Shown: one piece after another, positions 7,340 to 36,700 of the stretch
Numbering within the stretch: the first letter of the stretch is position 1
Layout of the letters: each line of letters begins with the position of its first letter
NCBI GenBank assembly: GCA_013299115.1
Contig: JAAFKA010000014.1
Coordinates: forward strand, 64,001-128,000
DNA: 64,000 bases
Source: Cytophagales bacterium
Lineage (GTDB): Bacteria; Bacteroidota; Bacteroidia; Cytophagales; Thermoflexibacteraceae
Direction: 5' to 3'
Made by a program: the position numbers and the translations under genes
Notes under the pieces: generated by a model
What the model saw: only the letters and a program-made list of their open reading frames with translations
Told to the model about the DNA's origin: nothing
Database searches by the model: none

Positions 7340-7590
7340 TTGTGCCGACAATGGTTATTGTAGAAATTGGATATTTACACGAAAACAACGGACTACTTTG
7401 TCTGTTAATTTTTTGAAAAAATATTTTGAACAATACCTTTCTTTTAGAGAACAGCCTTTGACTTTGGAGGTCGTGAAAAGTGCCTTAGAAATTGTCGATA
7501 TTCCCGAATTACACGACAGACTAATTACAGGAACAGCCAAATTATTAGGGGTAGAATTGATTACAAATGACCCTAAAAATAACAATAGAA
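7340..7590 (+). pseudogene. Remnant of a PIN-domain (VapC-like) toxin gene
   Basis: The C-terminal segment EVVKSALEIVDIPELHDRLITGTAKLLGVELITNDPK matches the PIN-domain C-terminal consensus (D-R-xI-AaTA...L-LvT-D). The upstream frame lacks a PIN N-terminus (MVIVEIGY... in another frame, then a stop), and there is no antitoxin ORF. Confidence 0.4.
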
Positions 7591-7607
7591 ATTTGCATTA
7601 CATTTTT

Positions 7608-8804: not shown

Positions 8805-8828
8805 GTAAATAGAGAGTAGAATTATTTT

Positions 8829-9917
8829 TTATAAGTCGAATTTTTTACGTAATCTTTTATGCAAAGGTTGTTCTACTGCATAGAAAAGCAAAACCGACAG
8901 GGCATTGAGTGCCAAAAACGTAAGAAAATAATAATTTTGTAGGCAAGGTAGCAAAAATCTTTCTAATAAACCTTTGTGCAGGAGATAAAATAGATAAGAA
9001 CTTTTGCCCAAAATAACCAATAACTTACTCGACAAAATTGTTTGCACAACTGTTTTTTCGGTTAGTAAACCCCACAAAAAACAGATGATAGCAAAAGGTA
9101 GTAGCCAATTATTGATACAAATTCCTGCGGGGTGCTGCAAGCCCAATGAGTTTTGCTGCTGCAAAAGAGCCAAATTGATTAGGCAAATGGCTATCAAAAT
9201 TAAGCCCAAATAAGTTTTGAAATGGTGCTTATTTGGTAGCAAAGTGGCTTGTTGTTTAAAGAAAAATGCAAACCCTACGCCTACCAAAAACTCTGCACTT
9301 CGCCCAAAAAAAGTGTGCAACCAAAGAAATTGGTAGTTGCTAAAAAAACCATAATAAATGTGTTTGGAAAAAAAAGCCACCAACGCCACGCCTATTGCAG
9401 TAAACAGCAGAAATTGCAACCAAAGTTTGATATTTTTTTGCCTGTAAAAATAAAAAATCAAGGGAGCAAGCAAATAAAAACACTCTTCTGCGGTTAAAGA
9501 CCAACTTTGCGGAATGAAAACCCCACGCAAATCGTCAAAAAAGCCATGCAAAAAGAAAAGACTCAGCAAATAAGTAGCCCAAAGTTCTTGGGTTGTCCAC
9601 GTTGGTAGATAAAAACCACCCGCAAAAGTCAAGGTCAGCAGCAGAAAATAAACAGGATAAATTCTTGCCCATCTGTTTTGTAAATAGCTTTTCCAATTTT
9701 TTGGGTCATTCCAATCCGCAGTGCCGTATTGGTAGGTTATCAAAAATCCACTTAACACAAAAAACAGCGTAACTCCTATGTGCAGTTCCATTGACAATTT
9801 GTGCAATCCTTCATATTTTACAATAAAAGGAGGTGCAAAATGGTGAACAAACACTGCATAAGCAGCTACGGCTCGCAGCCCTGTGAGGGCAGGAAAATAA
9901 GTGGTTTGGGTATTCAA
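8829..9917 (-). CDS. Acyltransferase family 3 membrane protein
   Basis: 362 aa, polytopic. The N-terminus LTGLRAVAAYAVFVHH...FFVLSGFLIT is characteristic of acyltransferase_3. Confidence 0.75.
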   Translation of the reverse strand: MNTQTTYFPALTGLRAVAAYAVFVHHFAPPFIVKYEGLHKLSMELHIGVTLFFVLSGFLITYQYGTADWNDPKNWKSYLQNRWARIYPVYFLLLTLTFAGGFYLPTWTTQELWATYLLSLFFLHGFFDDLRGVFIPQSWSLTAEECFYLLAPLIFYFYRQKNIKLWLQFLLFTAIGVALVAFFSKHIYYGFFSNYQFLWLHTFFGRSAEFLVGVGFAFFFKQQATLLPNKHHFKTYLGLILIAICLINLALLQQQNSLGLQHPAGICINNWLLPFAIICFLWGLLTEKTVVQTILSSKLLVILGKSSYLFYLLHKGLLERFLLPCLQNYYFLTFLALNALSVLLFYAVEQPLHKRLRKKFDL

Positions 9918-18069: not shown

Positions 18070-21000
18070 ATGAAAAAACATTGCTCAAAAATTACAAAAA
18101 TACTGCTCTTGCTGGCAATGCTGGCAATGACGCACACAAAGGGGTATGCACAGGCATTCATCACCCGATGGATAACCACCACAGGCACAATCACCATACC
18201 CACCACAGGCGGAGGTTATAACTATAACCTAAGTTGGACAAACCTTACCAATGCAGGCGTAGGTGATGGTAGCATAACTGCCCGAACAGGTAGCCACACC
18301 ATTATGAGTTTAGAAAACGGAAGCACCTACCAAATTGCAATAACGGGGGCTTTTCCGAAAATCTTTTTCAATTTTGGGTCAGAACGAAGTAAGATACGCA
18401 CTATTGAACAATGGGGAAGTATTGCTTGGACTTCTATGCAAAATGCTTTCAATGGTTGTGATAACCTGACCTATAATGCAGTAGATAACCCCGATTTGAG
18501 TGCTGTTACGGATATGTCGGGTATGTTTAGCAATACTTCAATTTTCAATGGCAATATCAATTCTTGGAATGTGAGTAATGTTACCAATATGGCGGGTATG
18601 TTTGGCGGGGCTTATGTTTTCAATCAACCTCTCAATAATTGGAACACAGGTAATGTAACAGATATGAGTGGTATGTTCATTAATTGTACTGCTTTTAATG
18701 GAAATATAAGCACTTGGGACGTAAGCAAAGTTACGAATATGACTTCTATGTTTGAAAAAGCAAGAAGTTTCAATCAAGATATTAGTGCTTGGAATGTTGG
18801 CAATGTTACCACTATGTTATCTATGTTTTGGCAAGCAGATGTATTTAATCAGCCTTTAAATAGTTGGAATGTTAGCAAAGTTACGACAATGAAACTAATG
18901 TTTTTCCTTGCACCAGCTTTTAATCAACCATTAAATAATTGGAGTACAAGTGCAGTTACTAATACAAGTGGTATGTTTAGTGGTGCATCTGCTTTCAATC
19001 AGCCATTAAATAATTGGAATGTAACCAATGTTACAGATATGAATGGTATGTTTAGTGGTGCCAATGCTTTTAATCAACCACTTAATAATTGGAATGTTGG
19101 CAACGTAACAGACATGAGTTTTATGTTTTCTAATGCAAGAAACTTTAATTCAGACATCACCACTTGGAATACAAGCAAAGTTACAAGTTTATTGAGTACA
19201 TTCTTTGGGGCAATAGAATTTAATCAAAACATTAATAATTGGGATACAAGCAATGTAACCACTATGGCTTCAACTTTTTGGAAAGCTGAAAAATTTAATC
19301 AGCCTCTCAATAATTGGAATACAAGCAAAGTTACAACTATGCATGGAATGTTTGCCTTTGCTACCATTTTTAATCAACCCTTAAATAATTGGAATGTTGC
19401 GAATGTAACAACCTTGCGGGAAATGTTTGTAAGTGCGGAAGCATTTAACCAAAATTTGAATAATTGGAATACGGTCAGTGTTACGAATATGGGTTCTACT
19501 TTCTGGAATGCAAAAAGTTTCAATGGTGATGTTACTACTTGGAATACAAGTAATGTTACCACTATGGGTTTTATGTTTTCAGGTGCTACGCCTTTTAATC
19601 AAGACTTAGTGAACTGGGACACAGGAAAAGTTACAGATATGACCAATTTGTTTGCAGGTACTGCTTTTAATTATAATATCAATAATTGGAATGTAAGTAA
19701 TGTAACAAGCATAGCTGCTATTTTTAATGGTGCAAAGTTCTTTAACCAACCACTTAATAATTGGAATACAAGCAATGTAACTGCAATGCGATGGGCATTT
19801 TGGGGTGCAACAGCCTTTAATCAGCCATTGAATAATTGGAATGTGAGTAAGGTAGCTAACATGGAAGCCGTATTTTATGATGCCTTAGCTTTTAACCAAT
19901 CTCTTGCAAGTTGGGATATGGGCAATGTAACAAATGCAGGATTTATGCTATTGAATAGTGGGCTTTCTGTGGCAAATTATGATGCAACACTTATTAGCTG
20001 GGCAGCACAAACCTTGCAACCAAATACAGGTTTAGGGTCGCAAGGGTTAAAATATTGTGCAGTAGCAGCACGAAATACTTTATTAGCTGCACCCAAAAAT
20101 TGGACTATTGCAGGTGATGCCCTAAGCCCTACTTGTGTACCTGTTTGTAACAATATCTACGTAAATGCAAGCACAGGCAACGATGCCAATGACGGACTTT
20201 CCAATGCCACTGCCAAACAAACTTTACAAGCAGCCTTTTCCACCGTAGCCGATGGCTGCACCGTAGTTCTCAATGCAGGAACTTACAACGAAAACGCAAC
20301 CCTCACAGGCAAATCTATTGCTTTGCTCGGCGTGGGCAACCCCACTGTTAGGCGAATAAACATGAACGGAGCAGGAAAAACCATGACCTTGACAGGGGCA
20401 GTGCAAATTTCGGAGTTGCTCAACTTGCAAGACGGCAATGTGGTGTCTAACGGAAATCTTACTTTGCTTTCCTCCGCAGCAGGGCAGGCATACATAGTCA
20501 ATAACTTGACTGCGGTAGTGATTGGAGATGTAAAAGTGCAGAGATTTGTGCCAAGTTATGCAGCAAGAACTACTACACAAGGCTACAATTATTTTTCTTC
20601 GCCTGTTTCGGGCAAAACCATTGCCGAGTTTAACGACAATGTACCTTTGGTACTCAATCCTAATTACGATTTTGTGAACACCTACGCAGGTGCTTTTCCA
20701 AATTTCTACCGATACAACGAAAACAGGGTAGTGAGTTCTCCCGCAGCCTCCAATGTTTTTGAAAAAGGTTGGGAGTCACCCGCCAGCACAGCCGAAAATA
20801 TGGAAGTAGGCAGAGGCTATATTCTCAACCTCAATTCAGGCTTAACACTTGATTTTATTGGCAACTTAAATAATGGCAATATAACCACCAATATTACACG
20901 TGGAAACGCAAGCAATTCGGGCTGGAATTTGGTAGGCAATCCCTATCCTTCGGCTCTTGATTTCAATGCTGTTTATACCCTCAATAGTCCGCAAATAGAT

Positions 21001-21942
21001 GGCTATAATTACCGCAGAATTGCCACAGGCTTGTATTCAGGCACGTGGGCATATTATGTGCAAGGCTTGCCCACAGGCACCAATGGCAGCACCAGTGATA
21101 TTGCCTTAGGGCAGGGTTTCTTTGTTCGCAAAAGTAATGTTGGCATTGCCAATTTGCAATTTAACAACACGATGCGGACTATTGCCAATCCGCAATTTTT
21201 TAGAACAGAAGACGCACAAAATACTGTTAATCAAGACATTAAAGGTTTATTGAAACTCAAAATATCGGCACAGGCAGGCAAAAAACAGGCAGATGAAACC
21301 CTTGTTTATTTCCACACGCAAGCAACCGAACACACCGATAAGGCATACGACGCACCCAAAGTGCAGTGGAATACAGGTGGTTCGCCAAATCTTTATACCC
21401 GAACCAAACAGCAAAATTTTGCTATCAATGCCTTGCCAAATCTGGAAAAAGAAACCACTATTCCGCTATGTTTTATTGTGGGCGAAAAGGGAACTTACAC
21501 CATAGAAACGATGGAAATGGGCAATTTTATTGGCTCGCCAAGCCTTGTGCTGGAAGACAAACAAACAGCTACTTTCCACCAAATTGCTACTAAACCTTAC
21601 ACCTTTGAAACTACTATAACAAATGATACCAGTCGTTTCGTCTTGCGTTTGGTGCCAGACTTTGCAGCCTTGCAGCAGCAGAAAAGGCAGACAAACGAAT
21701 TGGCTCTTTACCCAAATCCTACACAAGAGGTGCTGACTCTTGCCTTAGAAAATTCGGTAAACAGCGAGGTAACAGTCCGCATCACCGACCTCACAGGCAG
21801 GGAAGTGTTCAGCCAAAATGCAGCCAAAACAACGGACAAAGTGAGCCTAAAACTGAATGTAGCCAACCTTCCGCAGGGGTTGTATATTGTAGAAGTGGCA
21901 GGGGCGGAGTATGTGATGAGCAAAAGGTTTGTGAAGGAGTAA
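18070..21942 (+). CDS. Giant secreted protein with about 20 DUF285-type ~26-aa repeats and a T9SS C-terminal sorting domain
   Basis: 1290 aa with a signal peptide. The unit FNQPLNNWNVSNVTDMSGMF is repeated many times. The C-terminus (LYPNPTQEVLTLAL...GLYIVEV) matches the Por/T9SS CTD. Confidence 0.8.
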   Translation: MKKHCSKITKILLLLAMLAMTHTKGYAQAFITRWITTTGTITIPTTGGGYNYNLSWTNLTNAGVGDGSITARTGSHTIMSLENGSTYQIAITGAFPKIFFNFGSERSKIRTIEQWGSIAWTSMQNAFNGCDNLTYNAVDNPDLSAVTDMSGMFSNTSIFNGNINSWNVSNVTNMAGMFGGAYVFNQPLNNWNTGNVTDMSGMFINCTAFNGNISTWDVSKVTNMTSMFEKARSFNQDISAWNVGNVTTMLSMFWQADVFNQPLNSWNVSKVTTMKLMFFLAPAFNQPLNNWSTSAVTNTSGMFSGASAFNQPLNNWNVTNVTDMNGMFSGANAFNQPLNNWNVGNVTDMSFMFSNARNFNSDITTWNTSKVTSLLSTFFGAIEFNQNINNWDTSNVTTMASTFWKAEKFNQPLNNWNTSKVTTMHGMFAFATIFNQPLNNWNVANVTTLREMFVSAEAFNQNLNNWNTVSVTNMGSTFWNAKSFNGDVTTWNTSNVTTMGFMFSGATPFNQDLVNWDTGKVTDMTNLFAGTAFNYNINNWNVSNVTSIAAIFNGAKFFNQPLNNWNTSNVTAMRWAFWGATAFNQPLNNWNVSKVANMEAVFYDALAFNQSLASWDMGNVTNAGFMLLNSGLSVANYDATLISWAAQTLQPNTGLGSQGLKYCAVAARNTLLAAPKNWTIAGDALSPTCVPVCNNIYVNASTGNDANDGLSNATAKQTLQAAFSTVADGCTVVLNAGTYNENATLTGKSIALLGVGNPTVRRINMNGAGKTMTLTGAVQISELLNLQDGNVVSNGNLTLLSSAAGQAYIVNNLTAVVIGDVKVQRFVPSYAARTTTQGYNYFSSPVSGKTIAEFNDNVPLVLNPNYDFVNTYAGAFPNFYRYNENRVVSSPAASNVFEKGWESPASTAENMEVGRGYILNLNSGLTLDFIGNLNNGNITTNITRGNASNSGWNLVGNPYPSALDFNAVYTLNSPQIDGYNYRRIATGLYSGTWAYYVQGLPTGTNGSTSDIALGQGFFVRKSNVGIANLQFNNTMRTIANPQFFRTEDAQNTVNQDIKGLLKLKISAQAGKKQADETLVYFHTQATEHTDKAYDAPKVQWNTGGSPNLYTRTKQQNFAINALPNLEKETTIPLCFIVGEKGTYTIETMEMGNFIGSPSLVLEDKQTATFHQIATKPYTFETTITNDTSRFVLRLVPDFAALQQQKRQTNELALYPNPTQEVLTLALENSVNSEVTVRITDLTGREVFSQNAAKTTDKVSLKLNVANLPQGLYIVEVAGAEYVMSKRFVKE

Positions 21943-23181: not shown

Positions 23182-24798
23182 ATGAAAGCATTAAAATTGA
23201 TTTATCTTGTGCTATTTGTAGCACTTTTTGCGGGAGGGTGTTCTTCAACAACAAAAGAGCCAACTCCTACACCAGCAACAGGCAGTGTAGCAGTTGCTGA
23301 CTTTTCGTTCAATCCTACAACAGGCACTGCACCTTTGCAAGTGAGCTTTACAAATGCTTCAAAGCAAGCAGAAAGTTACAAATGGACTTTTGAAGGAGGC
23401 AGTCCTGCAAGTTCGATAGACAAAGACCCTGTTGTAACTTATGCGAAAGATGGGACTTATAAAGTTACATTGATAGCAATAGACAAAGATAAGAAGGAAA
23501 GTCAGCCTGCTGAGAAATCAATAACAGTGAGTGCTGCACCTATTACACCTGCCCCTGTAGCCAATTTCACGTTTACGCCAACCACAGGCACTGCCCCTTT
23601 GTTGGTAACATTTGCCAATACCTCGACCAATGCTACTTCGTTTGCGTGGGATTTTGGCAACGGACAAACCTCAACCGCAGCCAGCCCTACTACTACATAC
23701 GCCACCGCAGGTACGTATAACATCAGGCTGACTGCCACAGGTGCAAACGGACAAACCAACGTGAGGACTGCAAACATTACGGTTACTGCACCAGTGGTGC
23801 AAGCCTACACCATTAACGACAAGTGGATTACAGCTTTTAATGACGAACCAAAATCTTATCGCAATCACCACTATACTTTTGACTTAAACGAAGAAACCAA
23901 AGTAGATTTTAGTATTACCTCTTCGGTAGCTTGTGGTTTTATTGTCTATAATAGTTTGGATATTATAGAAATTAATGAAGTAAACTTTATTAATTCTCGC
24001 ACAAGGACAGGTTCGAAAGTACTGAAAGCAGGTAAATATAGAGTAGTTGCCATAGGCATTGAAGGTGCAGATGCCAATTATGTTTTGACAGTAACAGGTA
24101 AATTGGCTGCAAGACCTGCAAAAATAGAAACACAATACCAGAGAATGGTGGGTAGTTGGACTTGGTCAAACAATGACCGCCAACAAGCTATGTCTGCCCG
24201 CAATCGTCATTATGATATTGAGGTAACACAAGATACGCAAATTGATTTGATACTTACTTCTTCTCTAAATGTAAGGCTTTATATGATTAATGCTTTGGAG
24301 TTTAGAGTAATAGACGCAGATAATACCTTTAGTAAAACCATAAGGAAGTCTGTAACTGTTCGGAAAGGTAAATACAGAATAATTGCGAGTACCTACTCAG
24401 ACGGACAAGAAGCTAATTTTACCCTTGATATTTTTGGGCATTTTGCTAATGTAACAGAAATAAAATCTCTTGAGCCATTTTTCAATGGTTCGTGGACAGC
24501 TTCGGCAAATTCTCTGACTTCGCCCAATAATCCTCGCTATAATTTGGAAGTTACGCAAGAAAGTATGGTAGATATTTGGGTAAGTTCGCCAACTATAGAC
24601 ATTCGCTATGCCTTGCTTAACGAAAGAGGTGATGTGATAGTAGATTCAGGCACACGCAGCAGCAAAACTTGGACTGATAACGGTGTACTTCCCAAAGGTG
24701 TTTATACTATTGTCGTTGCCACCCGATTAGACAACCAACGAGGTAATTTTACTTTGGAGGTTTACGGTCATTTTATCAGCAATTTTAGGTTGAAGTAA
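23182..24798 (+). CDS. Lipoprotein with two PKD domains and three C-terminal ~100-aa repeats
   Basis: 538 aa with a lipobox (FAGGCSS). FSFNPTTGTAPLQVSFTNAS and FTFTPTTGTAPLLVTFANTS are PKD motifs. The C-terminal triplicated units end in NFTL(D/E)xxGHF. Confidence 0.7.
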   Translation: MKALKLIYLVLFVALFAGGCSSTTKEPTPTPATGSVAVADFSFNPTTGTAPLQVSFTNASKQAESYKWTFEGGSPASSIDKDPVVTYAKDGTYKVTLIAIDKDKKESQPAEKSITVSAAPITPAPVANFTFTPTTGTAPLLVTFANTSTNATSFAWDFGNGQTSTAASPTTTYATAGTYNIRLTATGANGQTNVRTANITVTAPVVQAYTINDKWITAFNDEPKSYRNHHYTFDLNEETKVDFSITSSVACGFIVYNSLDIIEINEVNFINSRTRTGSKVLKAGKYRVVAIGIEGADANYVLTVTGKLAARPAKIETQYQRMVGSWTWSNNDRQQAMSARNRHYDIEVTQDTQIDLILTSSLNVRLYMINALEFRVIDADNTFSKTIRKSVTVRKGKYRIIASTYSDGQEANFTLDIFGHFANVTEIKSLEPFFNGSWTASANSLTSPNNPRYNLEVTQESMVDIWVSSPTIDIRYALLNERGDVIVDSGTRSSKTWTDNGVLPKGVYTIVVATRLDNQRGNFTLEVYGHFISNFRLK

Positions 24799-25228
24799 AA
24801 AAACAAAATTTCGGCAGTTTTTTGAACTATTGGCAGGGCTGAAAAAGCCATTGCCAAAGTTCAAAAAAGCCAATGCCGAGGTTGCAGTTTTGTAACCATC
24901 AGCAGTGGTAAAACTAACGTAGGGACGAAATAGTGCAAGCTATTTTGTTCCTACGTTAGTTTTACACCAGCCTACTTAGAGAGGTTTTGCTATAAATATT
25001 TCGTGCCTAAAGGCACTAAAAGATATGATTTATAGCTATAGTAAGTCTAATACTTATTTTGTAAAGCTATTTTTTTGCGTAAATCCTGACTCTATTATTG
25101 TTTAATCTTTAAACAAAAACAGAAAAAACACTTCAAAAATTGTTTAATAAAAAAATATTTTATAACTTGCCAAGTTGCTATTGCAAACAAGCTACCACAA
25201 ATATTTAACCCAACATTCGGCATTTTTT

Positions 25229-26602
25229 ATGGATATTACCCAAAAATTTTGGTCTTTTTGCCACAAATTAAGGCATGATGGCATTGATTCGTCTGATTAC
25301 ATAGAACAACTTACTTATTTGTTGTTTCTGAAAATGGCAGACGAAAAGCAGTTGCCTGTGCCTGCGGACTATAATTGGCAGCAACTTATCAAAAAAACGA
25401 ATGGGGAACTTATCACACAATTAGATGCAACCTTGCAGGTCTTGAAAAACGAAAAAGGGATTTTAGGGCAGATTTTTGCCGAGCCAGTTTCTCGTATCAA
25501 AAATGCGGTGTTGCTCAAAGATTTGTTGAAAGAAATAGATGCTATTCAGTGGACGAAATTAGATAGTGATGTGGTGGGGCTGGCGTTTGAGGAGTTGATA
25601 GGCAGAGTAGCCAATGAAGGCAAAAAAGGGGCAGGACAATATTTTACGCCTCGCCCACTGATTAAGGCTATGATAAATGTGATGCACCCCAACCCATTTG
25701 CAGCAAAGGACTACAAAATCGGTGACGCTGCATGTGGCACGGCGGGTTTTCTCACTCTTGCCTGTGAATGGATACACCAACACTACCCCAAAGAATCTGC
25801 CGAACAAGCCGAAAAATTAGCTTATCATACATTCTGGGGACAAGAAATAGTACAAAGACCAAGACGTTTGGCACTGATGAATATGTTTTTGCATGGCGTA
25901 GATGCCAGCGAAACCATTAAGTTTGGCGATACGATAGAAAACGACCAGCTACCAAATGACTTTGATTTGATTTTGGCTAATCCGCCTTTTGGCAACAAAG
26001 GAGCTGCCCCGCTGCACCGCAAGTTTCCTGTCAAAACAAGTGATAAACAGCTTAATTTTGTGCAGTTGATAATAGAAAAACTGAAAAAAGGGGGCAAGGC
26101 TGCGGTGGTGTTGCCCGATAGTTGTTTGACAGATGACAAAGCAAAAGAAATGTGGAAATATTATTTGGAACAAGAGGAGATTATCAACTTGCATACAATT
26201 TTGAAATTACCAAGAGGCACATTTGCTGCCTATGCAAATGGTATTAAGGCTTGTGTTTTATTTTTTGAAAAGGGAAGTAAGACCGAAAATGTATGGGTGT
26301 ATGATTATAGGACTAATGTTCCTAACATGACAAAAAAGACAAGACAACTTTCAATAGAAATGTTTGAGGAGTTTGAAAAATGTTTTGTAGAAAGAAAAGA
26401 AATAGAAAGATTTAAATTATTTTCATTTAGGCAAATTCAGGAAAATTACTTTGCTTTGGATTTTAGATGGTTACAAGATGATGTTTTGTTAGATTCAGAT
26501 GAATTGCAACCACCAAAAGACCTTATCAACTATGCTCTTGATAATTTGCAAGAAGCAATGACTAATTTGAGTGAAATTTTAGAATTATTGGACAAAAAAT
26601 GA
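25229..26602 (+). CDS. hsdM: Type I restriction-modification system methyltransferase subunit
   Basis: The conserved HsdM N-terminus starts at the internal Met (MDITQKFWSFCHKLRHDGIDSSDYIEQLTYLLFLK). The NPPFG N6-adenine MTase motif is present. The ORF track begins 54 nt earlier at 25175. Confidence 0.9.
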   Translation: MDITQKFWSFCHKLRHDGIDSSDYIEQLTYLLFLKMADEKQLPVPADYNWQQLIKKTNGELITQLDATLQVLKNEKGILGQIFAEPVSRIKNAVLLKDLLKEIDAIQWTKLDSDVVGLAFEELIGRVANEGKKGAGQYFTPRPLIKAMINVMHPNPFAAKDYKIGDAACGTAGFLTLACEWIHQHYPKESAEQAEKLAYHTFWGQEIVQRPRRLALMNMFLHGVDASETIKFGDTIENDQLPNDFDLILANPPFGNKGAAPLHRKFPVKTSDKQLNFVQLIIEKLKKGGKAAVVLPDSCLTDDKAKEMWKYYLEQEEIINLHTILKLPRGTFAAYANGIKACVLFFEKGSKTENVWVYDYRTNVPNMTKKTRQLSIEMFEEFEKCFVERKEIERFKLFSFRQIQENYFALDFRWLQDDVLLDSDELQPPKDLINYALDNLQEAMTNLSEILELLDKK

Positions 26603-28176
26603 AGATACCAAAACATTGGCAATATATTTCTTTTACAGAAATCCTTGATATAATAGGAGGTTCTCAACCTGCTAAAGAGGAATTTATTGCCAATTTTCAG
26701 GAAGGATATATAAGGCTTTTGCAAATTCGTGATTTTGGAGATAAGCCTGTTCCTACTTTTGTAAGATTGACGAATAAACTCAGGTTTTGCGATAAAGACG
26801 ATATTCTTATTGCTCGTTATGGTGTTTCTATTGGACGAATTTTAACAGGTATGTCAGGAACTTACAATGTCGCAATAGTAAAAGTTATTATTCCAAAACC
26901 TTTGAATAAAAAATTTATATTTTATTTTCTTAAATCAAATGATTTTCAACAATATATAACTGCAAATGAAAGGGCTGCAATCAATGGTTTTAATAAAGAA
27001 GACTTAAATAATTTTCAAATTCCTATTGCACCATTAATAGAACAAACAGAAATCGTATCTATTTTAGATGAAATCTTTGAGAAATTTGAAACAGCAAAAA
27101 AATCTTTGGCAAAAATTCCTCGCCTATTGGCTCGTTACCGCCAATCTGTTTTAGAAAAAGCTATTTCTGGCGAATTAACTGAGGATTGGAGAGAGGAGAA
27201 TAATGTGGAGTTTGAGTGGGAGAATAAAAAATTAGGAGCTATAACTTCATTAATTACAAGTGGTTCAAGAGATTGGGCAAAATTTTATTCAAATAAAGGT
27301 GCTTTATTTATTCGCATTGGGAATTTGCAAAAGAACTCTATAAAAATAGATTTATCTCCTAATAATTTAAAATTTGTAAATCCTGATAGTGAGGAAGGAA
27401 AAAGAACATTATTAAAGCAAAATGATATTTTAATATCAATAACAGGTGATTTGGGGATTATTGGATTAGTTCAGCAGGATATTGGGGAAGCATATATCAA
27501 TCAACATATAGCATTGGTAAGAGTTAAGCCTAATGATTTCAATACTACTTATATAGCCTATTATCTTTTGACTGATTATGTTAAAATCCAAATCAACAGT
27601 TTAAAATCTGGTAATGTAAAGGCAGGTTTAACACTTAAAGATGTTTTTAATATATCAATAAATCTTCCTTCTCTACCAGAACAAACCGAAATCGTCAATC
27701 GGGTAGAAAAATTATTGAAAAAAGCAGATGAAGCCGAAGCAAAATATAACCAAGCAATGCAGATGATTGATAAATTGCAGGCATCGGTTTTGGCAAAGGC
27801 TTTTAGTGGCGAACTTTCTGAACCGCAACCAAATGACGAGTCTGTTGCTGTACTTTTAGAAAAAATAAAAACCGAAAAGGCACGTTTGGAACAGGAAAGG
27901 AAGGAATTGCAAAAGGCACAAACTACTATCAAGAAAACTATGGCACAACAGGAAAAAGTAGTAAAATCTGTTTTAGATTTTCTACGTGAATCTCCAACTA
28001 AAAGTATGACAGTAGAGGAAGCTTGGCAAGTTTCCGAATACAGAAAAAACAAAGAGGTTGAACTGTTTTTAGATGTGTTGGTTCTTTTAGAAAAAGAAGG
28101 CAAAATTAAAAGAGAGTTTGCTGATGAGGCAACAAAAATTGTTACCAAAATAACCCTAATTGAAAATGCAAATTAA
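26599..28176 (+). CDS. hsdS: Type I RM specificity subunit (two target-recognition domains plus coiled-coil spacers)
   Basis: 525 aa. ATGA start/stop overlap with hsdM. Duplicated TRD architecture with conserved central and C-terminal helical repeats (LPEQTEIV x2). Confidence 0.85.
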   Translation: MKIPKHWQYISFTEILDIIGGSQPAKEEFIANFQEGYIRLLQIRDFGDKPVPTFVRLTNKLRFCDKDDILIARYGVSIGRILTGMSGTYNVAIVKVIIPKPLNKKFIFYFLKSNDFQQYITANERAAINGFNKEDLNNFQIPIAPLIEQTEIVSILDEIFEKFETAKKSLAKIPRLLARYRQSVLEKAISGELTEDWREENNVEFEWENKKLGAITSLITSGSRDWAKFYSNKGALFIRIGNLQKNSIKIDLSPNNLKFVNPDSEEGKRTLLKQNDILISITGDLGIIGLVQQDIGEAYINQHIALVRVKPNDFNTTYIAYYLLTDYVKIQINSLKSGNVKAGLTLKDVFNISINLPSLPEQTEIVNRVEKLLKKADEAEAKYNQAMQMIDKLQASVLAKAFSGELSEPQPNDESVAVLLEKIKTEKARLEQERKELQKAQTTIKKTMAQQEKVVKSVLDFLRESPTKSMTVEEAWQVSEYRKNKEVELFLDVLVLLEKEGKIKREFADEATKIVTKITLIENAN

Positions 28177-29806
28177 ATCGGTATCTATCAAAGAATTTCG
28201 CAATCTGAAAGATTTTAAGATTGATTTTTCTCAATCTAAAACAGTTTTGATTGGACAAAATGCGTCAGGAAAATCTAATTTCTTGGAGGCTATTGTATTG
28301 ATTTTCAAGCAGCTTGATTTTTTTGATAACGAAATTAAAAAAGAACATTGGTTTGAATATGAAATTATTTATAAAATCCGAGAACATACAATTAAAATTT
28401 CAAGAAAATTAGAAAATGGAAAAGAAAAAAATGAATATAAATTTTGCAAAAGTAAAGATTTATTAGGAAACGATGTTTGGAAAGACATCCCAAAGTTCAA
28501 TGAAAAAAAAGATGAATATTTACCTAAATATGTTTTTGCCTATTATTCAGGCTTAGGTAATGGCAACCGTTTGGAGGAATATTTTGAAGAATATCAACGA
28601 AAATTTGCCGAAGATGCTATGAAAATAAAAGATGGTCGTGTGCCAAAACCACCAAGACTATTTTATGCTGAGTTAATACATAGCCAACTTTCTTTATTTT
28701 CATTTTTCATTGATAATCAGCCACTTATATTAAAATTGTTGAAAGACAACTTAAGCATTGAAGATTTGCAAACTGTGTTTTTAACCATTCAAGAACCAAA
28801 CTGGTCAACTCTAGAAAAAAAGAAAAAAGACCCTAAATTTTTTGGTAGTCAAGGGGTTGTAAAAGATTTGCTTGAATACCTGCATGATAATGTAGCTTTT
28901 GCACCTTTTAGAGATAAAATAGAAAATAAAAGCAGGCTTTGGGAGAAAAAAGGAAAGAAAACCTTAGATGTTGTCTATTTATATTTTAATGATTTCGAAA
29001 AAATTAGAAAGTTTATTCGTGATAAAACATGGACTTCTTTTGATTTTTTCCACATCTTAAATACTGCAAATGTTTCTAAACTCATTACCAAAGAAGGTAT
29101 TAAAATTCGTGTCAAGAAAAAGTATGCAGACCGTATTCTGTTTAAAGACCTTAGCGAAGGAGAGCAGCAATTATTGACTGTTTTGGGTTTAATGCGTTTT
29201 ACTTATACAGAGGAGGCTTTATTTCTACTTGACGAACCCGACACACATCTCAATGCTCTTTGGCAGTGGCAATACATGAAGTTTATTGAAATTGTATTGC
29301 AAGATAAAGACAAGGACAAAGATAAATCAAATGTGCAAGTTATTTTGGCTTCACACTCTCCGCTGACTATGGGTAGTTTGGAGAAAGAAAATGTAAGAAG
29401 GTTTATGCAGTTAAATGATAAACTTATAGCTGTTGAGCCAGATGTAAGCCCAAGAGGAATGGGTATCATAGGTATTCTGACCGAAATATTTGGTATTCCT
29501 ACTACTTTGGATATACCAACTCAACAAGATTTAGATGCCCGTAGAGAGTTGGAAAGTAGAGTATATTTTGGCGAAACACTTAATCAAGAGGATGAACAAA
29601 GCTTGCTAAAATTAAATTTAAAACTTGATAATTTAGGCTATCGTCTGATTTATCCTGACCCCTTGTATCAAAAATTTGAAATGACTTTTGCCAAAAGGAA
29701 AAAAGAAAAAGGCTTAGGGCTACCAAGCACACCAGAGGAAGTAGCAGAACTTAATAAACTCGCAGAAGATTTACTAAAAGAATTGTTTGATAACGAAAAT
29801 ATTTAA
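28160..29806 (+). CDS. AAA_15/AAA_21 (ABC/SMC-like) ATPase, Septu PtuA-like
   Basis: 548 aa. N-terminal Walker A LIGQNASGKSNFLEAI. C-terminal Walker B/D-loop FLLDEPDTHLN and ASHSPL. Overlaps the hsdS stop by 17 nt. Confidence 0.6.
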   Translation: MKMQIKSVSIKEFRNLKDFKIDFSQSKTVLIGQNASGKSNFLEAIVLIFKQLDFFDNEIKKEHWFEYEIIYKIREHTIKISRKLENGKEKNEYKFCKSKDLLGNDVWKDIPKFNEKKDEYLPKYVFAYYSGLGNGNRLEEYFEEYQRKFAEDAMKIKDGRVPKPPRLFYAELIHSQLSLFSFFIDNQPLILKLLKDNLSIEDLQTVFLTIQEPNWSTLEKKKKDPKFFGSQGVVKDLLEYLHDNVAFAPFRDKIENKSRLWEKKGKKTLDVVYLYFNDFEKIRKFIRDKTWTSFDFFHILNTANVSKLITKEGIKIRVKKKYADRILFKDLSEGEQQLLTVLGLMRFTYTEEALFLLDEPDTHLNALWQWQYMKFIEIVLQDKDKDKDKSNVQVILASHSPLTMGSLEKENVRRFMQLNDKLIAVEPDVSPRGMGIIGILTEIFGIPTTLDIPTQQDLDARRELESRVYFGETLNQEDEQSLLKLNLKLDNLGYRLIYPDPLYQKFEMTFAKRKKEKGLGLPSTPEEVAELNKLAEDLLKELFDNENI

Positions 29807-30734
29807 GCCTTTTCTGTCCATGAGATACATTGATATTTCAAAACTCACACTTCCTGCTGGTTGGTTGGTAACTGCCAATACTGCCTTAGCTACTTTGCTT
29901 ACAAAGAGCAAAAGAGAAAGAAATGACTTTATAAATTCTAAACAGTCCACTACTTGGAAAGACAAAAAATTGGTTAGTGCTTTAACCGAATTAGTTAATC
30001 CTGCAATGGAAAAATGTTGGTATTCTGAAACCAAAATTAGTGATGATTTAGATATAGACCATTTTCGCCCCAAAGGACACAATGAAAGACTATCATTTAG
30101 AACTCAATTTGAGGAGCATTTAGAAAAAAGACATTTTGAGGAGATTGATACAGAGGTTAATATGGGTTGGTGGTTTTTGGCTTTTGAACCTACTAATTTT
30201 AGAGTAGCTTCGCCCCACAGGAATCAATTACGCAGAAATAATACAAATGAAAGAGCAAAAGGAAAGTCTGATTTTTTTCCTTTGAAAAAAGGTAGCCCCG
30301 TTGCCACTAATCACTATGGGGTAGCAGACGAAATAAATTGCCTTTTAGACCCTTGTAATCCTCATGATGTAGAACTTTTAATTTTTGATAGCAATGGGGA
30401 CATTTTTAAAAATCATACAGATACATGGATAGAATGTAGAATTAATATTTCTATTGTGGTCTATCATTTAGACGAAGCAAAATTGAAAAATGGTCGCCAA
30501 CAAGTTTGGACAAATACAGAAAAATATATCATACAGCCATTAGTTGAGTTAGTAAAAGATACTTCTTTTTCTAATGAAAAGAAGTTACAAGAGGTTAATA
30601 AATTGCAAAATCATTTTTATACTGATTTTGCAGATACAAAAAGGGAGTTTTCTGCTGTTGCCATAGACTGTCTTCGCCATCATCAAAAAAAACATCCTTG
30701 GTTGGATAGATTTCTCCCCAACTTGACAAAATAA
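29787..30734 (+). CDS. HNH nuclease of the TIGR02646 / PtuB-like type
   Basis: 315 aa. CWYSETKISDDLDIDHFRPKGH resembles the retron/Septu-associated HNH family. Overlaps the ATPase stop. An alternative start is at 29820. Confidence 0.55.
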   Translation: MITKIFKPFLSMRYIDISKLTLPAGWLVTANTALATLLTKSKRERNDFINSKQSTTWKDKKLVSALTELVNPAMEKCWYSETKISDDLDIDHFRPKGHNERLSFRTQFEEHLEKRHFEEIDTEVNMGWWFLAFEPTNFRVASPHRNQLRRNNTNERAKGKSDFFPLKKGSPVATNHYGVADEINCLLDPCNPHDVELLIFDSNGDIFKNHTDTWIECRINISIVVYHLDEAKLKNGRQQVWTNTEKYIIQPLVELVKDTSFSNEKKLQEVNKLQNHFYTDFADTKREFSAVAIDCLRHHQKKHPWLDRFLPNLTK

Positions 30735-30736
30735 AA

Positions 30737-30778
30737 ACCCTCCCCCACAAGTTCCACACCTGCAAAGAAGGGTTTTAT
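30737..30778. terminator. Bidirectional hairpin between convergent HNH and sprA genes (aaaccctcccccacaag...agggttt)
   Basis: Inverted repeat in the 56-bp convergent intergenic gap. Confidence 0.35.
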
Positions 30779-30790
30779 TTACTCACTTTG

Positions 30791-33700
30791 TTACTGCAAA
30801 TTAAATCTCAACTGAATCCCAAACGAAGTATTAGTCCGTCTGAAAGAATTGGAAACATAAGGGGCATTGATAGCGTGGTCGAAATAGAACTGCAAACTTG
30901 CCCGTTGGTTAATCACGTAGTTAATCGTCGGGCGAATTTGGAGGTTGTAGTTGCCTTGTGTTACCGTACTTTCTTGAATTTCCTCGCCGCTTGCCAACGT
31001 CTTAATGCTGCGTTGGGCAGTTTTGGTATCTCTGATGGTGAAGGCACAGGCAAAAGTCAAGTCGTTTTTCAGAGTTCGATAGTTGCCCCTAATTTTAAAC
31101 GGAATTTTGAAGTTTGATTTTACAAAACCAATATTCATCACAATTTCGTTGTTTCGCAATTCGGTAACTTGGGCATTCATCATGTTCATCGCAAGTCCAC
31201 GATTCATATTATACCGCACATCTATCGAGATATTTTTGGCTGTTTTTATCCGCACACCCACCAAAGGTGCAAAACCTTCGGTGATTGTAACTTGATTCAT
31301 CACAAAAACAGGAGTCAAACGGTTGGTATTGGCATCGAGTTTGGCGAGGGGCAAGTTCTGCAAATCTATGTTTAGTCGCAACAGCGAGGGGTCTGTAAAC
31401 GCCAACGAAGATTGGTAGCCTCCTGTGCTGTACTCCGAAGTATAGGCGTGTTCTATCTGAATAGAACGGAAATAAGGTTTCAAAAACGGCAAATTCGACA
31501 AGCCGTTGTAGGTCAATTTCCAGTTTGGCAACGGAATGGCGGGAAAAGCCGACAAACTTTGGTTGCTCACACTGCTGCCACTATACGCCGCCAAAAACGA
31601 AGGAATTAACACGTCTTGGGCATTTCTGTCGTAAGTGCCTTCGGTGTTTCGACTGTCCAAACTCTGTTTTACTGTTTGGCGGTTGCGAATAAACTCATCG
31701 AACAAGGGCGAATTGTTGGCTGCATTATCTCCTGTAAACATGGTGGCTAACGAAAAATAGGTAATAGCATATTGCCCACTTCGCTGCGGTGTTTGCGTTA
31801 CAAAAGCATCGGCAGTTCGGTTATAGGTAAACAATTCTTGGTAAGTTGCCATGTTGGTTCTTCGGGCATTGACCATGAGTTGCATATCTTTCACAGGCTC
31901 AATCACAGCTTCTATCCGCAAAGTTTGGTTAGTTCCTTGCCCAAACGTATTATTTTGCAAGGCACTTTTGCCCAACCATTCTCTTTTGGCTGCGGTTTCT
32001 TTTATGGTAGGGTCTTGGCTACCAAACACAAAGCCCCAACCAGGGGAGTTGAAAGCTGAACTCATACCAAAAGCCCCCGTAGGTGTGGTTAGCACCCCTG
32101 GCAAGGCTGTATTGTTGGTTTCGGTGTAAGAGAAGTTAATTTTTTGCACCATCATCATGCCTTTGAGCAAAGTACGCATAGGGCTGCTCACTGGTTTGGT
32201 AGAGTTTTGGTCAAGTCTTTCTTTGTCTGCCACTTCTGCCAATTTCTTTTCAATTTTCTCTAATCTTTTGTCAAATTTTTCGTTTTTCTTTGCAAATTTT
32301 TCACGCACTTTTTCAGACAACAGGCTGCTGTCGGCTTGGGCTTCTGCTTTCAGGCTGTCCATTTTGGCTGCCAATCTGTCTTTGCGTCCTTCTATTCGTT
32401 TTTTGCGAGCCTCCAAACGCAATTTTTTTCCTGCATATTTCGATGGCAAAGGTTCTTTTGCCTTGCGAGGGTCGGCAACAGCTGCCAAGACTCTACTTTT
32501 TTCGTAGAGTTTTTTCATGTCGAGTTGTCCGTTGATAGCCACGTTTTGGTTGTTCAGCATATTGTTGCCCAAACTATCTGCCAAACCTACTGCACCTGCC
32601 TGCCAAGTGTAACCTGCGGTGTATTTCACATCAGAGGCAACCCAATTTACAACAGGAAACTTGTCAAATGGCAATTTGTAGGTTACGCTGGTGGTCTGCA
32701 CAAAGTTTTTGATACGACCCAAATTGAGCAAATTGTTTAATACCGAGTCTCTTTTGGTTCTGTTGCTAAAACGGTTGGCTTGTGTGCCGTCTATTTCTCC
32801 TGCGGGTTCGTCTATAATTGCCTGTGCCTGTGCCGTATAGTCTAAACGCAAACTTTTGGTAATAGACCAAGCTAATTGGTAACTTCTATTAAAAGTAAAG
32901 GCTTTTTCGTACAGGGGCAATACGCCCAAGGTGCTTAATTGCCCATCTCTCAGTTGAGTTTTCACAAATCTCCTTTCAAAATCTCCGCGTACTGTTACAG
33001 TATTTGGCAAAGGTGCAAAGTTAAAATCTTTGATAAATTTCAAATATTTGCCTTCCAAATTTTGGTTTTTCTTAAAGGGTTCTATCGCAGGCACTTGACT
33101 ATTAAATTGGTATTGCAAACCCAGTCGGGTGTTTTCTTGCTTGTATTCGGCTGTCCGCACATTGCTACTTACCCTTTCCATATAAGCAAAATTCAATGCC
33201 CAATTTTCCACACTCCAAGGCTTAGGTTTCTTTTGCCCTACTGCATTTTTGCCCACATTCTGGAAGGCAATAGTACGCATATTCATATCTTCCCGCACCA
33301 AATCGAGGTATTCTTGCCTGTTGTCTTTTGCATCGAGGGCTTGCGTGAGGGGCATATCGGGGTCAAGGGGATTGAAGTACGGAGTCAAGAGTCGTCTTTC
33401 CATGCCCAAATACATAGGAAGTCGCCAGCCCCATTTGTTGAGTCCAAATTTTTCTAATTGGATTTGCATATTGAGGTCATATTCTAAGGTGTGGTTTCGA
33501 GTTCTTTGCGAAATTTTGTCTTGAATACCTCCAAAAAATGGCGAAACATAGCGGAAACTTGCGTTTATCCTTGCCAAATCTGCCAACTGCACCTGCAAAC
33601 TTGTACGGCTTGCCCAGCCTGCTTCGGTGTTAAATTCGGCTACACGCAATTCGTTTGCCCAGATACAAACAGATTTTGGTTGCAAGTCTGCTGATTCGGG

Positions 33701-36700
33701 GTTTCTCACGCCAATCATTGCCGTTTGCACACTACTCAAATCGGGATTGCCAATGACTGTAATTTTAAATCTGCCTACAATCTCCGAATAAGGCACACGA
33801 ACAGAAAGGCGTTGGTTGTTTCTCCTCGATTTTACATCTATTAAATCTGCCGTTGCCACGTCTATTTCGTTTTCTTGAGGCCACACCACGTTCACGTCTG
33901 TACTGCCAAAAGGTGTCATTTTCAAAGGTACTTCTATTTCATAGTAGTTTTCTTTAAAGTCTGTTCCCAAACGCAAAAATGCAACCATTTCGCCATCTTT
34001 GGCATCTCTACTTTCTGCGTGCAAAAACATTTTGACCCTTTTGTAATTGACCATATCTAAAATCAAATTTTTATAGACTGCCTTTGCATCTTTTTCGGGC
34101 AAGGCATCTACGCACATACGCAAAGACTGTTCATTCAACCTTGCTTGGGTGGCTGCACCTACCAAATTCAAATCACGAGTAAAACCCGGCGGCAACATAT
34201 AAGGTGTAATAGTTCCATCGGCTTTTGGTGTGCCGTTATTGACAATATTGATAGAAGAAACACGCAAATTATTGGTTGTGGCAGGTTCAGGAGGCAAGTT
34301 TAGCCCTGGTGTTTGCAAACTTTCGGTAAAAGGTCGCCAAGGTGTGCCTACAAATTGGAAACGAGCCATACGCAAGACTACGGGCTGTTGCCAATCTGTC
34401 ATATACATACGGATATAACGTATGGATTTGAAACCATCAATAGCACCAACTTTATTCGTAAAATCACGCACAGGAATACGGAACTGATACCATGTAACTC
34501 TGTCGGGATTGGTAGCCGTAGGGTCTGTTACCACCTTGTCCACCACATAAGGGCTGTTTTCTACTTGATTGGGGCGAAGGTCTATTTTGTATTCGTAATA
34601 GCCGTCGAGGTCATTCAAGGAATTATCACGATTAAGGTCTTCGTTGTCGGGCAAAGTAGAGTAAGAGGCAGTCCCTGCATTTTCAGGCGAATTGTTTTCC
34701 ATACCATTAAAAAATTTATAACGGTCGAGGATTTTATAGTCTAATTGGTCTGCTTTGTTGCCCAAATAATAGCTGAAATTGTCGTTAGAAGGGTCATTTT
34801 GTATCTCACGATAGACATCAGGCGTAACTCTGCCTTGCACTGCTTGCAAATAATCTGTAAATTTTTGTCTTTCTACTTCGTCATTGATACCGTCCATGCC
34901 CACGTCTTGCAATGCCCTGGTGCCTGTGCCACCCGAAAAAGCATTGGTTAAAAACTGCTGTTCGGTTACTCTGCCCCATGCCGTTTCTTTTATCCTGTCT
35001 AAATTGTTGGCTTCGGTAGGCAAACCATTTTCGAAACCATGACGACTATCAGGAATTACATCTTCCGATACATTGCCCAAGTTAAAATACAATTCGCCAC
35101 CTGTCGTGTTGTTTTCGGCTTGCACCTGTCCGTTTACCAATTTGGAAATTACCCTACCATTTGTACCTCTAATAAAAGGGTCGAGCAACCAAAATTCTAC
35201 GTATTGAATGTTGATGTTATCAAAATCTACATCAGAAGTAATGCCTTTGGTAATAGCCCCAAAATTGCTGCGAGGATTTGGCAACGTACCATCAGGATTG
35301 AGCAAAGGATTGTAATTGTATTGCCCTCTTTCGTTAGGGTAGTAGGCAATGTTCATTACCTGTTCGGGCAGGTTTATCTGCATGGCATCAGGTTTTACAA
35401 TTTCGTTGAACGGAATTAACCGAACATAGTGGTTTTCTTTGTCCTCTGGCGTAATATTGGGCGGCGGACTTCCACCTGAAACAGTCTGGAAAAAAGAAGT
35501 AAAATCTATGGTGTACCAAGAAGTTTTGGCACGTCTGTAACCATATTCCAAAGGTCTGTTCGGATTAAAGATGGGTCTGAATTGGTTGGGCGTAGAGCCT
35601 AAAATCCACGTGGTGGGTTGCCTTCCTAAGTCATAAGGAATTTCGGCAGCCTCGAAATCGTCTATGAACGAAGTACCGCCATCTTTGCCTATGAGTTGGT
35701 TGGTGCTGGGCAGCAAGGCAGCCACCTCCGAAGAAAAGGTATAACTCGACTTTTCTTTGGTGCTGTATAAGGGCAATTTGTCCACCAAACGAGTGAGCAA
35801 ACGAGCATCATCTTTGCGGTGCTGCACCCCCAAACCGACCAAACTATTGCGTGTAGGCTCACTACCAATGTTCACCCTTGTTATCAAAGGTCTTTCGTTG
35901 AGGTGCATAGCCGTTGCGGTAAATCTTGTATTTTTCGACAAGAAATATTGGGCATCTAAACCAAAGAAATTGCGAGTTTGGAAACTAAACAAGTCGGCTC
36001 TTTCGTATTGTATCCTTATTTCTTTGCCCGAAGCCAACAACTCAGGTCTTAGGATATTGACAACTCCCGATTGGTAATCTGCACTAAAATCTGTACCTTC
36101 TCTCAACAACGTGCCACCTGCCGTTATCTGAATAGAACGAGGGGCAATGTTAATTCCTGGTAGGCGAATAGACGTGCCACTGGTGGAGGCTTGGAAACTT
36201 CCTTTGATAAAAAATTTGCTTTTACTTGTCAAAAGTTGTGCGTCCATTTGCGTTTTGCGATACAACTCATTGAACACATATTTTTGGCGAAATTGCAATT
36301 CTTCTTCGGGCAAAAACTTTTCGTCTAAGGTACGCCCAAAAGGTTCGAGAACAGGGAAAATGATACGCCCAAATTCGGGATATATGGTTACGGGTGCAGC
36401 CACGCCTGATGTACCCGCCAAGTTGCTTTGGTTAGCCGCCGCACCTGTGTTGCCTACCTGCGTAGTGGGGAAAGGATTGGTATTTGCCCCGCCTGTGGTG
36501 CTGGGTATGTTGTTGAAACTCGAAGGCGTAAAACTATTGGCTACACTTTGCGAACTTACCCCTGCAATAAAGTCAAAATTGCCATCGGGCTGCGGGTCGT
36601 TGTTTTGGTTGAGCCTGTCCACACCAAAAACTTGCACCAACGGCACATTTTTGAGGTTTCTGCCCTCTTGCAAGTTCGGATTGTCTATGCCTGTGAGGTC

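Follow-up and report, generated by a model that had tools for sequence, protein, structure and literature searches.

An hsdM-hsdS-ptuA-ptuB operon that joins a Type I methyltransferase core to a Septu-type pair, mostly without HsdR

Genes of the operon

The subject of this analysis is a four-gene operon in the genome of a Cytophagales bacterium (Thermoflexibacteraceae), located in a 64,000-nucleotide stretch of DNA that we refer to as the window (GenBank assembly GCA_013299115.1, contig JAAFKA010000014.1, positions 64,001 to 128,000 of the forward strand). Four co-directional open reading frames (ORFs) occupy positions 25229-30734 of the plus strand, as claimed in an earlier, sequence-only reading of this DNA, and encode HsdM, HsdS, and two proteins of the Septu type, PtuA and PtuB. 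The first gene, hsdM (25229..26602, plus strand), encodes a Type I N6-adenine DNA methyltransferase subunit of 457 residues, an identity supported by Pfam (N6_Mtase, E 2.8e-59; HsdM_N, E 2.3e-11), by PADLOC (MTase_I, E 3.1e-138), and by matches in the PDB to StySJI M (E 5e-75) and EcoKI M (E 2e-62). HsdM carries motif IV (NPPF) and the motif I (DAACGTAGF) that binds S-adenosylmethionine (SAM), and NPPF is conserved without exception among the 78 full-length HsdM proteins of related loci. The second gene, hsdS (26599..28176, plus strand), encodes a Type I specificity subunit of 525 residues with two target-recognition domains, which matches Methylase_S in two stretches (Pfam, E 3.3e-30) and Specificity_I (PADLOC, E 1.3e-82); its residues 2-430 align with residues 5-454 of the 464-residue EcoKI HsdS, and about 90 residues at the C terminus are extra. 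Both identities agree with those proposed in the sequence-only reading. Judged from their sequences, HsdM and HsdS hold everything needed for a Type I methyltransferase core, which would mark host DNA at a bipartite site.

Of the components of a Type I restriction-modification (R-M) system, an HsdM with NPPF and a two-domain HsdS are present, and HsdR is missing from the window. The earlier statement that no HsdR is encoded in these 64 kb holds: Pfam searches of the ten largest other ORFs returned neither ResIII nor HSDR_N, and tblastn of the window with eight HsdR proteins from related loci gave a best E value of 0.15.

The third and fourth genes had been described as an anonymous ATPase and HNH pair. 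The ATPase is confirmed to be of the ATP-binding cassette (ABC)/SMC type (Pfam: AAA_15, AAA_21, SMC_N); the pair is not anonymous, however, and is recognizable as PtuA and PtuB of Septu. PtuA (28166..29806, plus strand; 546 residues) matches the PADLOC model PDLC00293 over its full length (residues 3-546, E 6.7e-145) and has a Walker A motif (GQNASGKSN), an ABC signature (LSEGEQQ), and a Walker B motif (LLDEPDTHL), all of which are kept in 80 of 81 relatives. In sequence it is only weakly similar to the solved PtuA chains (E 4e-8 to 8e-4). PtuB (29820..30734, plus strand; 304 residues), a Septu-type HNH nuclease, matches PDLC00343 (E 1.4e-59), has no Pfam match, and has no sequence match in the PDB. 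An AlphaFold2 (AF2) model of PtuB with a mean predicted local distance difference test (pLDDT) score of 92.5 finds PtuB chains as all of its best eight fold matches in the PDB (9vh1_F, 9nnb_J, 8eea_G, and 9e90_B among them), each with a probability of 1.00, and these chains come from the retrons Eco7, Ec78, and Ec83 and from E. coli Septu. The motif KCWY.E...DHFRPK is invariant among relatives; the invariant residues of PtuB are K65, C66, H81, P84, K85, N126, and N135, and a helical C-terminal domain follows. The two features by which Septu is recognized, an ABC-type PtuA ATPase and, directly downstream, an HNH protein with the PtuB fold, are thus both found. Since the PtuA motifs, the PtuB fold, and the invariant HNH residues all agree, the pair is, as far as sequence and model can tell, a divergent but genuine PtuAB module despite the low sequence similarity.

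Among related loci PtuB occurs as two sharply distinct subtypes, which are exchanged between modules with 80-85% identical PtuA; in two such comparisons (L059 vs L069 and L035 vs L058) the PtuB proteins are just 25-32% identical although the PtuA proteins are 84-85% identical.

The four genes are tightly packed, with a short overlap or a short gap at each junction. The ATGA in which the hsdM stop and the hsdS start overlap is found in the junction sequence at 26599-26602, as had been reported, and the two downstream junctions differ from the earlier description. The overlap of 17 nt between hsdS and the ATPase gene presumed a TTG start at 28160; the supported start is the ATG at 28166, which gives an overlap of 11 nt and is backed by an exact match to a 546-residue database protein (P0001), by the gene calls on identical metagenome contigs, and by the profile alignment. 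Likewise, the ATPase stop had been placed inside the HNH ORF, an artifact of extending that ORF to a TTG at 29787. The ptuB start is the ATG at 29820, 13 nt past the ptuA stop, so that these two genes do not overlap; gene callers and an exact 304-residue match (P0160) agree on this start, and the PADLOC PtuB profile begins to align at residue 12 of the TTG-extended ORF.

The extra residues of HsdS form a C-terminal extension past the canonical end of the protein (approximately residues 441-525, encoded at 27919..28173, plus strand). All HsdS proteins linked to PtuAB carry it (70 linked proteins), with the conserved signature L..LK...A..LW..S...ID.FY.ELK, and a profile built from them also finds the extension at the HsdS C terminus of loci outside the profile set. 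It is absent from the HsdS proteins that adjoin the sister ATPase family TIGR04435, according to a search with the same profile. An AF2 model (pLDDT 80.6) arranges the extension as a helix, a strand, three helices, and a hairpin, that is, a winged helix after a long helix. Assignment of this tail to a family by fold search fails, the matches being weak (E 0.03-0.2) and generic winged helix-turn-helix types (MarR/PadR/Fur), and when the tail profile was run against a protein database, all matches were short fragments or small ORFs. In some operons the tail is a separate ORF of 80-125 residues directly before ptuA or a PtuA-PtuB fusion. We consider the tail a candidate adaptor or regulator that may join the methylase core to PtuAB.

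Two loci show the separate form of the tail in unusual surroundings. In L089 a separate ORF for an HsdS-type winged-helix tail precedes a 741-residue PtuA-PtuB fusion (7378-9603), and in a related hsdR-hsdM-hsdS operon (L087/L088, 7001-8721) the tail is a separate ORF of 83 residues followed by a protein with Schlafen/AlbA_2 and HATPase_c_4 domains.

Linkage to hsdS and hsdM across phyla, with and without HsdR

Using an alignment of PtuA relatives, we fetched 168 loci, of which species-representative genomes and metagenomes each contributed 80 and viral contigs contributed 8; their PtuA proteins are 32-57% identical to that of the window. Wherever the upstream sequence suffices, the end of hsdS meets the start of ptuA with a median overlap of 4 nt, apart from a few that have an insertion or in which hsdS is truncated (L055, L176, L147). 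The ptuB gene comes after ptuA, again with a median overlap of 4 nt, and hsdM lies either directly upstream of hsdS, as in the window, or directly after ptuB. The hosts belong to at least 12 phyla, among them Bacteroidota, Bacillota, Actinomycetota, Pseudomonadota, Chloroflexota, Cyanobacteriota, Acidobacteriota, Planctomycetota, Spirochaetota, Desulfobacterota, and Nitrospirota, and include Methanosarcina. The same layout was recovered in two look-ups that began from PtuB homologs. The hsdS-ptuA-ptuB core stays intact while the side on which hsdM lies, the presence of hsdR, the PtuB subtype, and the target-recognition domains vary around it.

Co-occurrence of the four genes in related genomes had been named as a check on the sequence-only reading, and it is borne out: PtuA relatives are found solely beside hsdS/hsdM at the 168 loci, on several plasmids, and in an E. 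coli island. The opposite pattern, in which the pair or hsdMS would occur apart, is not seen from the PtuA side. On these comparisons of sequence the adjacency of hsdMS and ptuAB is not chance. Of the two options that had been offered, the comparative data favor the one in which the pair is functionally tied to the methylase-S complex; the other, an orphan M+S methylase with an unrelated defense pair, fares less well.

HsdR, recognized by ResIII, EcoEI_R_C, and HSDR_N domains, is encoded at 27 of the 80 genome loci and 27 of the 80 metagenome loci. In all 54 of these relatives hsdR lies upstream on the same strand, mostly directly adjacent. This does not fit the earlier suggestion that the ATPase-HNH pair occupies the position of a restriction subunit; relatives that have hsdR carry it upstream of the module, beside the pair. 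No HsdR is found at 37 of the 54 genome loci that have at least 5 kb of sequence on each side, and the large genes upstream in these 37 loci are unrelated ones (GyrB, TraG, ArdC, peptidases, and a transposase). Loci with and without HsdR are interleaved on the PtuA tree, which implies many losses or gains of hsdR. HsdR is lacking throughout the clade of the window module (L006-L009), and L108 lacks it too.

The HsdR-less module is mobile by itself. It is present on Roseomonas plasmid p546-4 (no HsdR in the whole 64 kb scanned), on an F-type conjugative plasmid of V. vulnificus (no HsdR in approximately 65 of 70 kb scanned), on Pantoea pEuc2, and in an integrase island of E. coli MB06233 (module proteins WP_270359127/125/123/120), where RefSeq labels PtuA "AAA family ATPase" and PtuB "hypothetical protein." On the Roseomonas plasmid a gene for a MarR-family regulator overlaps the hsdS start of the module (L092, 37946-38428). 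Fic/DOC genes, once with VbhA, adjoin the module in E. coli, Pantoea, V. vulnificus, and Hymenobacter (L090, 10841-11458; L091, 13089-14618; L094, 4591-5670; L107, 1154-2793). The module lies directly downstream of gyrB in Burkholderiaceae, Chloroflexi, and Undibacterium (L062, 5328-7823; L050, 5927-7921; L106, 357-2852). These three lineages are unrelated, which hints at a recurrent insertion site.

Within an all-HsdR-less clade, PtuA, PtuB, and HsdM are 95-97% identical and the HsdS tail is 79-94% identical, and the target-recognition domains of HsdS are just 10-40% identical. Turnover of these domains without HsdR, together with the retention of NPPF, points to a continuing role for DNA specificity and methylation in these systems.

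Possible roles of the pair and relation to known systems

We posit that PtuAB is probably functionally coupled to the methylase core, because its linkage resembles that of PrrC, which is nearly always found in Type I R-M systems, and not that of ordinary Septu. More tentatively, we read hsdM-hsdS-ptuA-ptuB as one integrated methylase-plus-Septu defense module to which HsdR would be an optional addition. In such a module the methylase core would supply sensing and specificity to PtuAB, as the retron does in retron-Septu, and the winged-helix tail of HsdS would tether or regulate the PtuA oligomer. In the least certain step, the core would meet its target sites on unmodified incoming DNA and license PtuA-gated cleavage by PtuB, the outcome being HsdR-independent, methylation-dependent restriction or growth arrest. 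That unmodified DNA at target sites is the trigger is a conjecture that may well prove wrong. Retrons are known to co-opt PtuAB (PMC12819146). In K. pneumoniae NUH66 a "Type I-like" R-M system, HsdMS without an identifiable HsdR, restricts plasmids in a site- and SAM-dependent manner via an unidentified nuclease (PMC12456054), and MADS, which lacks HsdR, unites AAA ATPase genes with HsdM-like and HsdS-like ones (bioRxiv 10.1101/2023.03.30.534895); a restriction-like trigger fits the methylation-based restriction of both. A stronger version, in which HsdMS-PtuAB is a widespread self-sufficient R-M system with PtuAB docked on the HsdS tail and doing the motor-nuclease job of HsdR, we regard as doubtful.

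Several observations weigh against this integrated module. Characterized Septu and retron-Septu systems are abortive tRNA or DNA nucleases released by a partner, so a model in which HsdMS guards PtuAB fits no worse than a restriction model does. The Klebsiella locus has been described with McrBC and HsdMS, not with PtuAB (PMC12456054). One third of the loci hold HsdR as well, so PtuAB is no simple HsdR substitute, and the HsdR-less carriers, this genome included, could have an hsdR elsewhere. The support for coupling of HsdMS to PtuAB consists of comparative data, and the conservation could reflect co-inheritance of one old embedding event. Similarly, the shuffling of target-recognition domains may be neutral import from HsdR-containing relatives. 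Finally, the tail in L087 precedes the Schlafen/AlbA_2 and HATPase_c_4 protein instead of PtuAB, so it may belong to the HsdS lineage rather than to PtuAB.

The alternative that survives best is a guard or decoy role, as in PrrC or Ronin: HsdMS would hold PtuAB latent until a phage anti-restriction protein of the Ocr, ArdA, or Stp type binds or disables the core and so frees the pair, and the freed PtuAB would cut tRNA or DNA and abort the infection. Loci with HsdR would then combine restriction with a backup, and HsdR-less loci would be pure decoys. The obligate linkage to hsdMS serves this model equally, and the coexistence of HsdR in approximately one third of the loci recalls the prr locus; PrrC is found nearly exclusively inside Type I R-M systems and is held inactive by them (bioRxiv 10.1101/2024.01.29.577857). 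Ronin, which consists of HsdMS without HsdR and a toxin, is set off by ArdA and Ocr (bioRxiv 10.1101/2023.04.06.535777), and Ocr triggers PARIS and further pairs of an ABC ATPase and a nuclease. A phage trigger frees retron-bound PtuAB, and Septu cleaves tRNA-Tyr (PMC12819146, PMC13096335). However, a decoy needs no new DNA specificities, yet the target-recognition domains change fast in the all-HsdR-less clade, and no small RonA-like toxin is encoded in the operon. We consider the guard model rather unlikely and give some preference to a restriction-like trigger, itself tentative; the two are not mutually exclusive, and the present data cannot separate them.

It is less probable still that the two halves of the operon are independent systems, that is, an autonomous Septu embedded once in an hsd operon, traveling with it by a shared promoter and mobility and not needing HsdMS, with the hsdMS of HsdR-less loci as an orphan methylase. 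Defense genes are often embedded in Type I R-M systems, perhaps selfishly, other cargo fills the same slot in the related L087/L088 operon, and PADLOC classes the pair as an ordinary PtuA/PtuB; pairwise identities of PtuA and HsdM are also weakly correlated (Spearman 0.19). Against independence, Payne et al. report merely 0.7% of Septu systems as embedded in Hma. The order hsdS-ptuA-ptuB, with its conserved hsdS-ptuA overlap, is broken just by rare insertions or hsdS truncation in approximately 170 loci, at PtuA identities down to 32%, and moves of hsdM, losses of hsdR, and swaps of PtuB and of target-recognition domains all spare it. An ordinary Type I R-M system with hsdR elsewhere in this genome and Septu as passenger cargo is very unlikely: a Type I hsdR can be transcribed from a promoter of its own at a place away from hsdMS, and this genome was examined over 64 kb, but hsdR is upstream on the same strand, mostly adjacent, in every one of the 54 HsdR-containing relatives, it is missing from all of the closest relatives of this module (L006-L009 and L108), and the module resides on one whole plasmid, Roseomonas p546-4, without any HsdR.

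The integrated module that we favor shares features with several known systems. Canonical Septu (Doron 2018; E. coli structure 8EEA) likewise has an ABC ATPase and, after it, an HNH nuclease whose C-terminal domain is helical, but it is a stand-alone two-gene system, whereas the clade of the window is found solely joined into an hsdS/hsdM operon, which speaks against autonomy of the pair; the characterized proteins are also very low in sequence similarity to the window PtuA and PtuB. In retron-Septu (Ec78/Eco7, type I-A) PtuAB is attached to a separate controlling sensor module (PMC12819146, PMC12673091), with a reverse transcriptase and its multicopy single-stranded DNA (msDNA) as the partner instead of a Type I methylase core. 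The window pair is not of the retron type: PtuA reaches 64.1 bits with NF041760, the cutoff of which is 500, the HNH protein reaches 18 with TIGR02646 (cutoff 52), and no reverse transcriptase is encoded in the operon.

PrrC-EcoprrI, and RloC with it, is an ABC-type NTPase-regulated nuclease that is obligately linked inside a Type I hsd operon. PrrC is a single polypeptide with an anticodon-nuclease domain, encoded between hsdS and hsdR of a complete system, unlike the pair in the window operon, which consists of two separate proteins, one of them an HNH nuclease, and is not flanked by hsdR; HsdR is usually absent from loci of the window type, and PrrC models do not appear among the top 25 PADLOC matches listed. 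In Ronin (HsdMS with RonA; Silas et al. 2023), hsdMS without hsdR is also tightly linked to an effector other than HsdR. That effector is a 61-residue membrane toxin, and Ronin is confined to E. coli and its relatives, in contrast to window-type loci, which have PtuAB as the effector, occur in many phyla, and hold HsdR in a third of cases. We therefore did not assign the window operon to Ronin: HsdR-less hsdMS is present, but the effector is PtuAB, and the operon, in which the genes leave no free gap, contains no small transmembrane ORF.

MADS resembles the window operon in uniting an HsdM-like protein, an HsdS-like protein, and an AAA/ABC ATPase in one HsdR-less, methylation-based system, and the PADLOC models mad2, mad5, and mad3 match weakly. 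MADS has eight genes, however, of which MAD6-8 are mandatory, and none of these three is in the four-gene operon; the NCBIfam scores are far below their cutoffs (MAD2, 92.5 vs 720; MAD3, 38.8 vs 420; MAD5, 63 vs 400). The layout of an hsdM, an hsdS, an ATPase, and a partner gene is shared with TIGR04435, the "restriction system-associated AAA family ATPase," and the PADLOC candidates PDC-M01/M62, and this layout is likewise found HsdR-less on plasmids (Hymenobacter pHsw2 and a Priestia plasmid; L096, 4908-10845, and L097, 3786-9562). The window PtuA is not a member, at 124.7 bits against a cutoff of 300, and the two are sister ATPase families; the partner in TIGR04435 loci agrees best with the PDC-M01B/M62B profiles, and its matches to PtuB profiles are weak or absent. 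For K. pneumoniae NUH66 the published account describes McrBC and HsdMS alone (PMC12456054), and the enterobacterial relative L054 lends no support to a link, as that locus has type VI secretion system genes upstream and not McrBC as in NUH66. MANTIS (Gao_RL) is a different system, related to BREX.

We did not find this unit described in the searchable literature, where we looked at Septu together with Type I R-M, at TIGR04435, at HsdMS combined with PtuAB, and at the co-occurrence of Septu and R-M. Type I M and S subunits, Septu PtuAB, embedding of defense genes in R-M systems, R-M guards, and the co-option of PtuAB by retrons are already known; a Septu clade tied to hsdS/hsdM, with optional HsdR and a winged-helix tail on HsdS, appears undescribed in that literature. 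Standard tools would call such a locus "Septu" and an incomplete Type I system. HsdR-less hsdMS is usually dismissed as an orphan methylase and Septu is treated as a stand-alone two-gene system; should this PtuAB clade require the methylase core, both labels would be wrong in many genomes. Such dependence would be the second case, after retrons, of PtuAB plugged into a separate sensor, and it would offer a concrete candidate for restriction without HsdR. Were PtuAB to do the job of HsdR, it would constitute a second kind of Type I restriction effector, and it could be the missing nuclease of HsdR-less restriction such as that of K. pneumoniae NUH66. The winged-helix tail of HsdS is a testable candidate for the adaptor, and the copy in E. 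coli MB06233 makes the experiment straightforward.

Surroundings of the operon

A hairpin lies between the ptuB stop and the stop of the convergent sprA gene (30734..30776), with T or A runs on both sides; sprA itself, identified by SprA_N, occupies 30791-38452 of the minus strand. The hairpin described in the sequence-only reading thus exists and passes a terminator scan of the minus strand, although its fold is weak (-10.9 kcal/mol, z -1.3), and it is likely a shared, thermodynamically weak terminator of ptuB and sprA. On the other side, a double hairpin separates the gene for a PKD-domain lipoprotein (23182-24798, plus strand) from hsdM (24795..24985; RNA fold and inverted repeats I1 and I2). 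This structure is far more stable (-86.6 kcal/mol, z -12), occurs once in the window, and includes arms of 26 nt at 24908-24933 and 24940-24965; the arms of one hairpin are 92% complementary. It is probably the terminator of the preceding PKD-domain gene, and its position does not imply that it belongs to the system.

The G+C content falls to 0.29-0.35 within the unit, compared with approximately 0.38-0.45 nearby, which is the sole sign of foreign origin; neither flanking direct repeats nor a tRNA gene was found at the locus. A sigma-70 scan, which does not cover Bacteroidota promoters, gave 28 sites against 23 expected.

Farther upstream lies a gene for a 1290-residue DUF285-repeat protein with a type IX secretion system (T9SS) sorting tail (18070-21942, plus strand); this protein, the PKD-domain lipoprotein, and SprA indicate a Bacteroidota host. 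Near the other end of the window, a plus-strand gene (58087-63054) encodes a 1655-residue protein in which three TIR_2 stretches (E 9.7e-69) precede many WD40 repeats; it may be a TIR-based defense or signaling protein.

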